DNA from: Escherichia phage HC13
Sequence record: OL362276.1
Length of the DNA: 39,803 bases
Direction: 5' to 3' (one strand)
In this document: positions 2,775 to 26,296 of the stretch, in pieces
Numbering within the stretch: the stretch's first letter is position 1
Layout of the letters: each line of letters opens with the position of its first letter
Program-made: the position numbers and the translations under genes
Notes under the pieces: model-generated
Told to the model about the DNA's origin: nothing
Database searches by the model: none
The model's input: only the letters and a program-made list of their open reading frames with translations

Positions 2775-5456
2775 ATGAGCGTCATCTCTATTGACAAGCA
2801 CGACTTCTCTGATGTGTCGAACGCCATTGAGCCGTTTAACCTACTGGCTGACCACTACGGGCAAGACCTTGCAGTCAAACAGCTTCAGCTTGAGCACGAG
2901 GCATACACTGAAGGCGAGCGACGTTTCATCAAGAACCTTGAGAGACAGACTGAGCGAGGGGAACTGGCAGACAATCAGGTCGCCAAGCCTTTGATGCAGA
3001 CTCTGGTCCCTAAGATTGCGCAAGCCGTCAAGGAGTGGCATGAAGGTCCAGACGGGAAGCTGTCAACCTCTCGTCCTAGCGTAGCGTTCACCGTGTTGAG
3101 CACTGAAGAGAAGGCCGTCAAGGACCGCTCTATGCGCATCTCCTGTGAGTCCGCTGCGGTTATCATACTGAAGGTCATACTCTCCAAGCTGGTCAAGCCT
3201 GAAGGGATACCGATTACACCGATGGCCTCCGCGATAGGTCGCACACTTGAGGACGAAATCCGCTTCGGTCGCATCCGTGACAAAGAGAAAGAGCACTTCA
3301 AGAAGGCGATAGCTGATAACCTGAATAAGCGGGCCGGGGCGTCATACAAGAAAGCCTACATGCAAGCGGTCGAGGCGTCCATGCTGGAGCAAGGCCAACT
3401 GGAAGATGCGTGGGGGACTTGGAGTCCTACAGAGGCTGTCCACGTTGGCATCAAGATGCTCGAGATTGTCATCCAGTCAACACAACTGGTCGAGCTTAAG
3501 CGGTATGGTGCTGGTAATGCAGCGGCTGACGTAGAGATGGTCCACCTGTCAGACTTCTGGGTCAAGAAGATGGCACAACGAGGATTCAGCCTTGCGGGTA
3601 TAGCTCCAGTCTACCAGCCTTGCGTCGTTCCACCTAAGCCGTGGACTGGTGTCGTAGGCGGTGGGTACTGGGCCAAAGGACGCAGACCATTACCACTGAT
3701 TCGCTTAGGGTCTAAGTCTGCGGTAGCACGCTACGAAGACGTGTATATGCCTGAAGTCTATGACGCTGTGAACATCATTCAGAATACACCTTGGAAAGTG
3801 AACAAGAAGGTTCTGGAAGTGGTGAACATGGTCGAGAAGCTGAACAACACGCCTATTGATGACATCCCTCAGATGGAACCGCTGAAGCCTGAGGACTATG
3901 CGGGTGAGACTGAAGAAGAACTCAAGGCATGGAAGAAGGCTGCTGCTGGTATCTATCGCCGCGAGAAGGCCAGACAGTCACGAAGATTGTCACTGAGCTT
4001 TATCGTCAACCAAGCGAACAAGTTCTCTCAGTTCAAGGCCATCTGGTTCCCGTATAACATGGACTGGCGCGGTCGCGTCTACGCTGTGCCGATGTTCAAC
4101 CCTCAGGGTAACGACATGCAAAAGGGTCTTCTGACTCTGGCAGTCGGTAAGCCTATTGGTGCTGATGGTTTCAAATGGCTGAAGGTCCACGGTGCAAACT
4201 GCGCGGGTGTCGATAAAGTCACCTTCGAGGAGCGTATCAAGTGGGTGGAAGATAACCACGACAACATCATGGCTGCTGCCAATGCACCGATGGATAGCAT
4301 TGAGTGGTGGGGCAAGTTAGACTCTCCGTTCTGCTTCCTAGCGTTCTGCTTCGAGTATGCTGGCGTAATGCACCACGGCTTGTCTTACTCCTGCTCGCTG
4401 CCGATAGCGTTCGATGGGTCCTGCTCTGGGATTCAGCACTTCAGCGCTATGCTTCGCGACCACATCGGTGGACATGCAGTAAACCTGACGCCATCCGGTA
4501 AGGTCCAAGACATCTACCGCATCGTGTCTGACCGCATTGAGGAGGAGCTTAAAGTCCTACTGGTTAACGGTACGGACAACGAGATGGTAACTCACGAGGA
4601 CAAGAAAACTGGTGAGATTACCGAGCGTCTCAAGCTGGGGACACGAGAGCTTGCCCGTCAGTGGCTGACCTACGGTATGTCACGAAAGGTCACTAAGCGT
4701 TCGGTCATGACTCTGGCCTACGGGTCGAAAGAGTACGGCTTCGCAGACCAAGTTTACGAGGACATCGTGATGCCAGCGATTGACTCAGGGTCTGGCGCTA
4801 TGTTCACTGAACCAAGCCAAGCATCTCGCTTCATGGCTAAGATGATTTGGGAAGCTGTGAGTGTGACCGTAGTTGCTGCGGTTGACGCGATGAAATGGCT
4901 TCAGGGTGCTGCCAAGCTGCTTGCTGCTGAAGTGAAGGACAAGAAGACTGGAGAAATCCTGAAGCCTTGTCTTCCGGTACACTGGGTCACACCTGATGGT
5001 TTCCCTGTCTGGCAGGAATACCGCAAGAAGGACACCACTCGTCTGAACCTGATGTTCTTAGGGTCATTCAACCTTCAGCCTACCGTCAACAAAGGCACGA
5101 AGAAAGAGCTGGACAAGCACAAGCAGGAGTCAGGCATTAGCCCGAACTTCGTCCACTCACAAGATGGTAGCCACCTGCGGAAGACTGTAGTCCACACTCA
5201 CCGCAAGTATGGCGTGATGTCATTCGCAGTGATTCACGATAGCTTCGGGACCATCCCTGCTGACGCTGAGTATCTGTTCCGTGGTGTCCGTGAGACGATG
5301 GTCGAGACATACCGCGATAACGATGTGCTGCTTGACTTCTACGAGCAGTTTGAATACCAGCTTCATGAAAGCCAGCGCGACAAGTTGCCTGAGCTTCCGA
5401 AGAAAGGTAAACTGAATATCGAAGACATCTTGTCTTCAGACTTTGCATTCGCTTAA
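2775..5456 (+). CDS. 1: Single-subunit DNA-directed RNA polymerase (T7 gene 1 homologue)
   Basis: 893 aa, aligns end to end with T7 RNAP as recalled (ANQFKAIWFPYNMDWRGRVYA, HGANCAGVDK, DGSCSGIQHFSAM, KRSVMTLAYGS, NFVHSQDGSHLR, IHDSFGT, C-terminal SDFAFA). Confidence 0.97.
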   Translation: MSVISIDKHDFSDVSNAIEPFNLLADHYGQDLAVKQLQLEHEAYTEGERRFIKNLERQTERGELADNQVAKPLMQTLVPKIAQAVKEWHEGPDGKLSTSRPSVAFTVLSTEEKAVKDRSMRISCESAAVIILKVILSKLVKPEGIPITPMASAIGRTLEDEIRFGRIRDKEKEHFKKAIADNLNKRAGASYKKAYMQAVEASMLEQGQLEDAWGTWSPTEAVHVGIKMLEIVIQSTQLVELKRYGAGNAAADVEMVHLSDFWVKKMAQRGFSLAGIAPVYQPCVVPPKPWTGVVGGGYWAKGRRPLPLIRLGSKSAVARYEDVYMPEVYDAVNIIQNTPWKVNKKVLEVVNMVEKLNNTPIDDIPQMEPLKPEDYAGETEEELKAWKKAAAGIYRREKARQSRRLSLSFIVNQANKFSQFKAIWFPYNMDWRGRVYAVPMFNPQGNDMQKGLLTLAVGKPIGADGFKWLKVHGANCAGVDKVTFEERIKWVEDNHDNIMAAANAPMDSIEWWGKLDSPFCFLAFCFEYAGVMHHGLSYSCSLPIAFDGSCSGIQHFSAMLRDHIGGHAVNLTPSGKVQDIYRIVSDRIEEELKVLLVNGTDNEMVTHEDKKTGEITERLKLGTRELARQWLTYGMSRKVTKRSVMTLAYGSKEYGFADQVYEDIVMPAIDSGSGAMFTEPSQASRFMAKMIWEAVSVTVVAAVDAMKWLQGAAKLLAAEVKDKKTGEILKPCLPVHWVTPDGFPVWQEYRKKDTTRLNLMFLGSFNLQPTVNKGTKKELDKHKQESGISPNFVHSQDGSHLRKTVVHTHRKYGVMSFAVIHDSFGTIPADAEYLFRGVRETMVETYRDNDVLLDFYEQFEYQLHESQRDKLPELPKKGKLNIEDILSSDFAFA

Positions 5457-5471
5457 CAGGAGGAGAAGTAT

Positions 5472-5702
5472 ATGTCAATGAAACTTGTAGCACACAACAG
5501 AGTATTCAACGATGGGTCGGGACGTTGCCATGTAGAGCTGACTTATAAGGATTTAATCATTCTCCGAGACAGATTACAGTCGGGTGTGACTGGGTGGATT
5601 CAACCTAACGAGTACAACCTTATAGCTTCGATTGATGAAGTTCTTAACGCGTGGATGGAAGACGAGCGAATTCAGTATCCGTCATTCCCTCTAATTAGAT
5701 AA
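5472..5702 (+). CDS. Hypothetical protein (76 aa)
   Basis: Strong SD AGGAGGAG upstream. Sits between gene 1 and 1.1; no recognisable motif. Confidence 0.5.
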   Translation: MSMKLVAHNRVFNDGSGRCHVELTYKDLIILRDRLQSGVTGWIQPNEYNLIASIDEVLNAWMEDERIQYPSFPLIR

Positions 5703-5712
5703 GGAGAGAGTT

Positions 5713-5928
5713 ATGAAATTTGCACACAAGCATACTGGCGTTAATGGTGGGACTCAAATCGTGACCGTAACAGAACACAACGGCAAGGGTATGGTGAAGA
5801 CCACGGTCATACCTACCGAGATGTCCAAGCAGCTTAACATCCCGTTCAAGACTCTTGTATATCTGGTCGAGTCCAGCCACGAGAAGTACCTGAAGGACGC
5901 AGTGTCCAAGCTGGAGCAGGCCAAATGA
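5713..5928 (+). CDS. Hypothetical protein (71 aa)
   Basis: SD AAGGAGAG upstream of ATG. No recognisable motif. Confidence 0.5.
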   Translation: MKFAHKHTGVNGGTQIVTVTEHNGKGMVKTTVIPTEMSKQLNIPFKTLVYLVESSHEKYLKDAVSKLEQAK

Positions 5929-6002
5929 CAGACATACAGTTACTGGCCCTGTGGCTGGGAGCACTCGCAGTATTCACTTTAATCCAACGCAGAAGAGGTT
6001 AA
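5925..6002 (+). CDS. Small hydrophobic peptide (25 aa)
   Basis: My own translation: MTDIQLLALWLGALAVFTLIQRRRG. ATG overlaps the upstream stop (ATGA). Very short, speculative. Confidence 0.25.
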   Translation: MTDIQLLALWLGALAVFTLIQRRRG

Positions 6003-6003
6003 C

Positions 6004-6027
6004 CCTAAACTATCACTATAGGATTAG
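6004..6027 (+). promoter_or_regulatory. Phage RNAP promoter (TAAACTATCACTATAGG, +1 about 6021)
   Basis: Promoter-family match. Position equals T7 phi1.1. Confidence 0.75.
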
Positions 6028-6070
6028 ACTCAAGGTCATGACTCAAAGTCGTGGCCTTCATGATTAACCC
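6022..6070 (+). promoter_or_regulatory. Putative RNase III processing hairpin (R1.1-like)
   Basis: Conserved UAGACUCAAGGUCAU ... GUGGCCUUCAUGAUUAA. Upper stem AAGGUCAU pairs with GUGGCCUU; internal loop and lower stem as in the hairpins at 13150 and 36801. Confidence 0.45.
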
Positions 6071-6099
6071 TAAATAAACACTACTGGAGATTTAACCGT

Positions 6100-6279
6100 A
6101 TGTATCAGAACACTATCAACTTCGAGCGCATCCGTGAACGTCAGCAGACTGAAGGTTACATCCCTAAGGGCCGCAAGCTGAACAAGACTAAACGTGGCGG
6201 TGGCATCAAAGGTGCTTTCCGTAATGCTGAAGGTAAAGACTCTCTGGTCAACCAAGAGAAATACTTCGTAGGAGCATAA
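6100..6279 (+). CDS. 1.1: Gene 1.1-like small basic protein (59 aa)
   Basis: My own translation contains KGRKLNKTKR, matching T7 gp1.1 as recalled. Below the ORF-track size cutoff. Confidence 0.6.
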   Translation: MYQNTINFERIRERQQTEGYIPKGRKLNKTKRGGGIKGAFRNAEGKDSLVNQEKYFVGA

Positions 6280-6283
6280 CCAA

Positions 6284-6547
6284 ATGGGCCGACTTTATAG
6301 TGGCAACCTCAACGCTTTCAAATCAGCGTGCAACAGGCTCTATCAGTTAGACTTAGCTGTTATATCTCAGGAGTTTCAAGACCATGTGTCAAGCCAAGAG
6401 TGCATGAAACTCAGGGTGGAGGACCGAGCCGGTAACATCTTCGCGCTTGAGACCTTCGCACACTACGATGAAGACGTGCTGTATAATACCGCAACCGACT
6501 ACCTCAACGGTCTCGCTGACCATCTCGACACATGGAGCAAAGAATAA
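6284..6547 (+). CDS. 1.2: gp1.2, inhibitor of host dGTP triphosphohydrolase
   Basis: MGRLYSGNLNAFKSA...LDLAVI...RVEDRAGN...HYDEDVLYN aligns with T7 gp1.2 (MGRLYSGNLAAFKAA...). Confidence 0.85.
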   Translation: MGRLYSGNLNAFKSACNRLYQLDLAVISQEFQDHVSSQECMKLRVEDRAGNIFALETFAHYDEDVLYNTATDYLNGLADHLDTWSKE

Positions 6548-7593: not shown

Positions 7594-7603
7594 CTAAATG
7601 TCA

Positions 7604-7645
7604 ACCCAGTGGTCTTCGCGGACTGCTGGGTTTCTTTGCTTTGTG
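7604..7645 (+). terminator. Early (host RNAP) intrinsic terminator TE
   Basis: ACCCAGUGGUC / GGACUGCUGGGU hairpin (about 11 bp with two G-U pairs) followed by UUUCUUUGCUUUG. Same position as T7 TE, immediately after ligase. Confidence 0.6.
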
Positions 7646-26272: not shown

Positions 26273-26296
26273 CCTTAACTATCACTATAGGGACTA
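26273..26296 (+). promoter_or_regulatory. Phage RNAP promoter (TTAACTATCACTATAGGGA, +1 about 26290)
   Basis: Promoter-family match. Position equals T7 phi13. Flanked by the inverted repeat GGGCCTATAG / CTATAGGCCC. Confidence 0.8.

Follow-up and report, generated by a model that had tools for sequence, protein, structure and literature searches.

Three small open reading frames behind the RNA polymerase gene of Kayfunavirus phages are probably early accessory genes, one of them encoding a predicted membrane micro-protein

Between its RNA polymerase gene and the next phage promoter, Escherichia phage HC13 carries three small open reading frames (ORFs) that are, on balance, probably real and expressed early accessory genes, including one for a membrane micro-protein. 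We studied them in the window, by which we mean the whole stretch of 39,803 nucleotides that was analyzed and that belongs to the genus Kayfunavirus, the K1F-like relatives of T7. All three ORFs were found exactly where an initial annotation had placed them (Table 1). This annotation had also noted strong Shine-Dalgarno sites in front of the two larger ORFs and a promoter at 6004, and both readings held: the ribosome-binding sites are AGGAGGAG for ORF1 and TAAGGAG for ORF2, each located 6 nt before the ATG, and the promoter contains the exact phage promoter core CTAAACTATCACTATAGG. Its contrast with T7 was equally correct, since gene 1 of T7 ends at position 5822 and the phi1.1A promoter lies at 5848 with no ORF in between. 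The distance from gene 1 to phi1.1A is thus 25 nt in T7, whereas here it amounts to 547 nt and accommodates three genes that have no T7 counterpart. ORF1 and ORF2 already figure as hypothetical proteins in the genome records of many K1F-like phages, while ORF3 is largely overlooked.

Table 1. Features of the gene 1 to gene 1.1 region in the window
Feature	Position	Strand	Basis and remarks
Gene 1, T7-type single-subunit RNA polymerase, 893 aa	2775..5456	+	ORF list; labelled RNA polymerase in all matching records
ORF1, 76 aa	5472..5702	+	PHROG 28104; cassette of optional occurrence, preceded by a Shine-Dalgarno site of its own
ORF2, 71 aa	5713..5928	+	PHROG 8082; Kayfunavirus-wide, fast-evolving
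ORF3, 25-aa hydrophobic micro-protein MTDIQLLALWLGALAVFTLIQRRRG	5925..6002	+	Start overlaps the ORF2 stop (ATGA)
Phage RNA polymerase promoter, T7 phi1.1A position	6004..6026	+	Exact core match at 6005-6022; directly 3' of the ORF3 stop
Stem-loop homologous to the T7 R1.1 RNase III processing site	6022..6065	+	Fold and alignment with T7
Degenerate second promoter copy TTAACCCTAAATAAACACTACTGGAGA, T7 phi1.1B position	6064..6090	+	Read from the sequence; includes the gp1.1 ribosome-binding site
True homologue of T7 gene 1.1, 59 aa	6100..6279	+	PF08200, E 6e-11; BLASTP against T7 gp1.1, E 7e-6

The 711 bases around these ORFs have matches in 216 phage records, the best being vB_EcoP-U8 (99.2%) and LM33_P1 (99.0%). 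A near-identical Kayfunavirus sequence for this region is also found in PV615262 (Acinetobacter phage vB_Aba_01KA) and PQ520054 (Enterococcus phage IME_EF3), whose host labels may be wrong or whose samples may have been contaminated.

To assess coding status, about 45 related loci were gathered from GenBank phages, IMG/VR and Logan assemblies, and substitution patterns were determined for each reading frame. In its own frame, ORF1 gave a pN/pS of 0.30 (0.42 with distant members) against 1.1 to 2.2 in the other two frames, ORF2 gave 0.14 (0.34 with distant members) against 1.5 to 4.5, and ORF3 gave 0.28 against 1.23 and 0.95; in ORF3, moreover, 31 of the 60 distinct single-site variants were synonymous compared to 27% expected (P = 5.5e-5), without any excess in the other frames, although both the pN/pS values and this binomial test overstate independence because the compared sequences share kinship. 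The own-frame values of two control genes, gp1.1 (0.12) and gp1.2 (0.25), were similar. Purifying selection is therefore confined to the proper frame in ORF1, ORF2 and ORF3, indicating that all three are real coding sequences.

ORF2 was detected in 219 phage records and is present throughout the genus. A search among 5.8 billion proteins returned 193 clusters, nearly all of them on contigs of about 40 kb. The protein of the window is basic (pI 9.5) and shares 97% identity with its K1F counterpart and 73% with that of CR44b. An AlphaFold model of fair confidence (pLDDT 86) combines an antiparallel sheet of three strands with two helices, a short one and a long C-terminal one. Such a three-stranded sheet with a helix could be read as a small nucleic-acid-binding protein of the AP2 or integrase arm-binding type, acting on phage or host DNA or RNA. 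We consider this unlikely, as the structural scores for AP2 and arm-type proteins were all weak and were outranked by LptE and type III secretion chaperones, and no sequence profile of any DNA-binding family matched ORF2.

The names under which ORF2 is filed are misleading. It is called gp1.1 in records of the K1F lineage (K1F, Dev2) and 1.05 in CR44b. ORF2 gave no Pfam match to PF08200 at E<=1 and no BLASTP alignment to T7 gp1.1, and it does not occupy the gp1.1 position either, being located upstream of the promoter and hairpin rather than between phi1.1/R1.1 and gene 1.2. Likewise, ORF2, with 71 aa, gave no Pfam match to PF25755, the T3 gp1.05 family of about 155 to 165 aa. Both "gp1.1" and "1.05" are thus in use for a protein that is unrelated to either, and the names are corrected here. 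The initial annotation had suggested comparison with relatives as a check, and had named absence from all of them together with a missing translation signal, or identity with known T7 proteins, as what would speak against its proposal. Neither applies, because the ORFs are present in relatives (39 records for ORF1 and about 220 for ORF2 and ORF3) and are not T7 proteins, the real gp1.1 being encoded further downstream. Its statement that none of the products is recognizable also stands: no sequence match was found in Pfam, NCBIfam or the PDB, and the PHROG families that were hit are of unknown function. Searches of Pfam, NCBIfam, PADLOC and PDB sequences for a function returned nothing or noise, and our literature searches found no paper giving a function or expression for the three proteins. 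A K1B4 transcriptome paper turned out to concern an unrelated phage.

ORF1 has a much narrower distribution than its two neighbors: 39 phage records contain it, with identities of at least 84%. A word-indexed search recovered 9 clusters, and phmmer, run exhaustively against 1.8 billion representatives, recovered 5 clusters of 40 to 88% identity. Every one of the distant relatives, down to 40% identity, is located directly after gene 1, and an ORF2 homologue follows wherever the contig reaches far enough. Comparison with K1F and CR44b revealed a clean indel: in the window, TAACAGGAG is followed by ORF1, TAAGGAG and then AGAGTTATG, against an uninterrupted TAACAGGAGAGAGTTATG in the two other phages, which places the boundaries of the indel within Shine-Dalgarno (AGGAG) repeats. 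The base composition of ORF1 also deviates from that of the surrounding genome. Its GC content is 0.434 and its GC3 0.447, compared to a GC content of 0.501 for the window and a GC3 of 0.6 to 0.68 in gene 1, ORF2 and the ligase gene, which points to a foreign origin. These comparisons show ORF1 to be an optional, mobile cassette. It resembles moron-like cassettes in its presence or absence between flanks that are 90 to 100% conserved, in its lower GC content, in its rapid divergence and in that its slot takes a further cassette. It differs from them in having no promoter or terminator of its own, as no such site lies between 5456 and 5713, and in being part of the polymerase operon. The product is acidic (pI 5.5), and its model is of low confidence (pLDDT 66), with a beta-hairpin, two helices and generic fold matches. 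The N termini of ORF1 and ORF2 look alike by eye; a profile-profile probability of 1.2% led us to reject the idea that the two are tandem paralogues.

The region around the three ORFs is unevenly conserved. The last 199 residues of the polymerase are 90 to 100% identical across the loci, and gp1.1 is 92 to 100% identical in most of them and about 80% identical in K1F and in locus L011. Between these flanks, ORF2 drops to 44% identity and ORF1 is absent or has diverged to 41 to 51%. In addition, many relatives harbor a T3 gp1.05-type gene (PF25755, about 155 to 165 aa) exactly between the ORF3 stop and the promoter, among them L001 (EcoDS1, 2108-2578), L045 (GA2A, 1283-1756), L006, L007 and L011 (6560-7054); the window lacks this cassette. 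Taken together, the conserved flanks, the variable ORF2 and ORF1 and the extra gp1.05-type gene form the signature of an accessory hot spot. According to one study (10.1101/2023.04.06.535777), accessory genes that evolve fast and sit between conserved genes of a phage are generally argued to target the defences of the host or to counter competitors. One record labels the PF25755 gene "microtubule-binding protein", which looks like an annotation artefact.

Variation was also seen further downstream. After the promoter and hairpin, the gene order is gp1.1 (PF08200), gp1.2 (PF10922), ligase and a TE-like terminator, the latter a strong hairpin with a 13-bp stem and a T-run at 7603-7632, directly after the ligase gene and thus at the position of T7 TE. 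For gp1.2, the dGTPase inhibitor encoded at 6284-6547, no tblastn match was found in more than half of the related loci, though gp1.1 and ligase flank the slot, which suggests that gp1.2 has been replaced there by a different type of protein. The K1F records DQ111067/NC_007456 have no gene annotated between ORF2 and the ligase gene, and in the K1F locus (L004, 1587-1764) the gp1.1 homologue splits into two tblastn pieces, suggesting a frameshift or a sequencing error in the K1F reference.

The initial annotation regarded products encoded immediately behind the polymerase gene as candidate polymerase-associated or host-shutoff factors. On this view, ORF1, ORF2 or both would bind the RNA polymerase of the phage or the host, whether to regulate it, to make it more processive or to shut off host transcription, and would be translated together with the polymerase. 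This position is the sole real argument for such a role, which we regard as quite unlikely. Neither protein matches PF16857 (T7 Gp2) or any other RNA polymerase-binding family, and a match to Xp10 P7 appeared at a low rank in a non-specific list. Most of the genus lacks ORF1 even though the polymerase C terminus is so well conserved, and ORF2 varies beside an almost invariant polymerase, unlike a tightly co-evolving partner. A nearly invariant enzyme next to a variable ORF2 and an optional ORF1 therefore argues against obligate polymerase partners. Moreover, the related locus L011 has a separate gene for a Gp2-type inhibitor.

ORF3 is the most conserved of the three ORFs. Its DNA was found in 221 phage records by blastn, and a scan of IMG/VR with a back-translated pattern found it in Kayfunavirus-type contigs exclusively. 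Four other pattern matches in that scan were rejected as chance, since at a length of 76 nt they are out of frame. ORF3 was intact in 41 of the 41 loci that were read, with a length of 25 codons in 40 of them and of 26 in L011. Its start always overlaps the ORF2 stop (ATGA or GTGA), and its stop, whether TAA, TGA or TAG, stands at the same position across loci. This junction and the length of ORF3 are kept even where ORF2 is only 44% identical. In the window, the ATG overlaps the ORF2 stop within AAATGA and a GGAG lies 9 nt upstream, an arrangement that recurs at gp1.2 of the same window.

The consensus of the encoded peptide is MTDLQLLALWLGALAVFTLIQRRRG, from which the window differs by an isoleucine at position 4. 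A hydrophobic core of 17 residues (mean Kyte-Doolittle hydropathy, 2.28) is preceded by the N terminus MTD and followed by the C terminus QRRRG. In all alleles, one segment of membrane-spanning length lies between charged ends, the pattern of a single-pass membrane protein. This includes a second allele, MTDLKWLALWLAFLAVYTLIQRRRG (with the stretch WLAFLAVY), which was seen only in loci carrying the T3 gp1.05-type cassette, and the diverged peptide of 26 aa in L011, VTDNQLWLTLWSAFLITFIVFQRRRG, which keeps an acidic N terminus, about 17 hydrophobic residues and QRRRG. The diverged versions in L011, L028 and L010 all consist of TD, a hydrophobic stretch and a basic C terminus (QRRRG in L011 and L010, QQRRG in L028). 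Several small single-pass membrane proteins are known in E. coli, such as TisB, ShoB, Ibs and AcrZ-type peptides. ORF3 is like them in its size of 25 aa, its one hydrophobic helix and its charged ends, and unlike them in being located in the early operon of a lytic phage, in being coupled to an upstream gene and, apparently, in having no antisense RNA partner. Nor does it have the setting of a holin such as T7 gp17.5, as it belongs to the early unit directly after gene 1, upstream of the TE-like terminator, and not to a late or lysis region.

ORF3 has no PHROG or Pfam family and resembles no known family in sequence. An annotation exists in GA2A (YP_009324944.1), and none in K1F, LM33_P1 and most other records; the published annotation of the K1F-like phages SH3 to SH5 used a minimum ORF length of 30 aa (PMC4925675). 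Some records annotate an alternative ORF of 38 aa at 5951-6067, which crosses the promoter and the hairpin. We reject it as spurious because a 1-nt indel in relatives breaks its frame.

The block formed by ORF3, promoter, hairpin and gp1.1 is very conserved as DNA, even next to an ORF2 of 44% identity, and part of the conservation of ORF3 may therefore reflect linkage or recombination. Taken further, ORF3 might not be a functional peptide at all, its 78 bases being kept for what they do at the level of DNA or RNA; they could, for instance, form an upstream promoter element, a recombination block with gp1.1 or a spacer whose translation holds ribosomes on the message as far as the RNase III site. 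In line with this, the nucleotide conservation of ORF3 is about that of the adjacent promoter and hairpin, and the peptide has neither a family assignment nor an annotation in most genome records. The evidence against it makes this explanation quite improbable. The enrichment in synonymous changes and the low pN/pS are restricted to the ORF3 frame, the start (ATG or GTG) and the stop are found at fixed positions while their codons change, and in L011, L028 and L010 many bases have changed and the peptide pattern has been kept. The gp1.05 cassette is inserted exactly after the ORF3 stop codon. There is also no signal of RNA structure, with a fold z-score of +0.2 for ORF3, and a scan of 5300-6400 against Rfam yielded a single chance match to a snoRNA (21 bits compared to a threshold of 95 bits); a structured RNA in the ORF3 region was thus rejected.

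ORF length by itself is not significant here, because the ORF list of the window contains frequent chance ORFs of 60 to 120 aa in wrong frames. That the three ORFs are likewise chance open frames in an intergenic spacer is nevertheless an explanation of negligible probability, contradicted by the frame-specific purifying selection on all three, by positions that are kept across 40 to 100% identity and by proper ribosome-binding sites.

The signals downstream of ORF3 suggest how the three genes, which we thus take to be real, might be expressed. The promoter core occurs 11 times in the window, compared to 0.03 matches expected by chance. The promoter behind ORF3 is invariant across relatives and is annotated as such in EcoDS1, CR44b and ASO2B. 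The hairpin that follows has a folding energy of -16.6 kcal/mol (z -3.9) and is nearly invariant in relatives. It aligns with the T7 sequence ACTCAAGGTCATTCGCAAGAGTGGCCTTTATGATTGACC between phi1.1A and phi1.1B, a segment that holds the R1.1 RNase III site of Dunn and Studier's T7 map. By this homology, the hairpin is the probable 3' boundary of a message comprising gene 1, ORF1, ORF2 and ORF3. In the second promoter copy, TATAGG is changed to TACTGG. Since relatives differ in this copy and the ribosome-binding site of gp1.1 overlaps with it, it is probably a decayed tandem promoter, a relic that no longer works.

The region is therefore like T7 in the order of its genes and signals (phi1.1A promoter, R1.1 hairpin, phi1.1B relic, gp1.1, gp1.2, ligase and TE-like terminator) and differs from it by the genes inserted before phi1.1A. 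Our analysis suggests that the three ORFs most likely share with gene 1 one early message bounded by RNase III processing, which would make this message four-cistronic as opposed to monocistronic in T7. Judging from the homology of the signals to those of T7, ORF1 to ORF3 would be its distal cistrons. The message would probably arise through transcription by the host polymerase that begins at the left end, possibly also from a phage promoter at 2684, and would probably end by cleavage at the R1.1-like hairpin. ORF1 and ORF2 would each be translated from their own strong Shine-Dalgarno site, and translation of ORF3 would be coupled to that of ORF2 through the overlapping ATGA, aided by the GGAG.

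The promoter at 2684-2701 (CTTAACTATCACTATAGG) is of the phage type with one mismatch and precedes the RNA polymerase gene by about 75 nt; the same variant is present at 26274 and 39207. T7 is not known to have a phage promoter before gene 1, so that the one at 2684 could provide the polymerase with positive feedback. It is followed by ACTCAAGGTC, the motif that opens the R1.1-like hairpin at 6028. The segment at 2699-2740 may thus hold an R1-type processing site; the fold there is only weakly better than that of shuffled sequences (z -1.3). Further upstream, the early region at 784-2677 contains a gene for an Ocr-like anti-restriction protein (784-1293) along with five small ORFs, four of which belong to PHROG families of unknown function, while the one at 1293-1478 has no PHROG match. 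None of the ORFs before gene 1 was recognized as a counterpart of gp0.7, the kinase/shutoff protein of T7.

Judged from sequence comparison, the best reading of ORF1 to ORF3 is an early accessory set of genes that would be directed against the host and carried on the gene 1 message, and whose products would not be components of the phage polymerase. ORF1 would be a small acidic cytoplasmic protein from a horizontally moved optional cassette, and ORF2 is a genus-wide, rapidly diverging, small basic alpha/beta protein. Both might bind a protein or nucleic acid of the host and in this way serve takeover or counter-defence. ORF3 would be a single-pass micro-protein of the inner membrane, acting early in infection on this membrane or on a membrane protein; according to the positive-inside rule, its acidic N terminus would face outward and its QRRRG tail would be cytoplasmic. 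Any specific molecular target that one might name for the three is improbable at present. We can nonetheless imagine, as a speculation of low probability, that ORF2 and the coupled ORF3 work as a pair and constitute a previously undescribed, Kayfunavirus-specific early module at the host inner membrane, which would for instance disable a membrane-bound abortive-infection or exclusion system or change membrane energetics, while ORF1 would be a counter-defence cassette that is swapped in and out of the same hot spot.

Small early accessory genes are an ordinary class of feature in a T7-like phage, and these genes do not by themselves reveal a new mechanism; what they add is a conserved and mostly unannotated micro-protein. 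Members of Kayfunavirus, K1F and LM33_P1 among them, are under study for phage therapy of E. coli K1 and ST131. Overall, the polymerase operon of this genus carries a variable accessory slot, together with a genus-wide predicted membrane peptide of 25 residues that most annotations have skipped.
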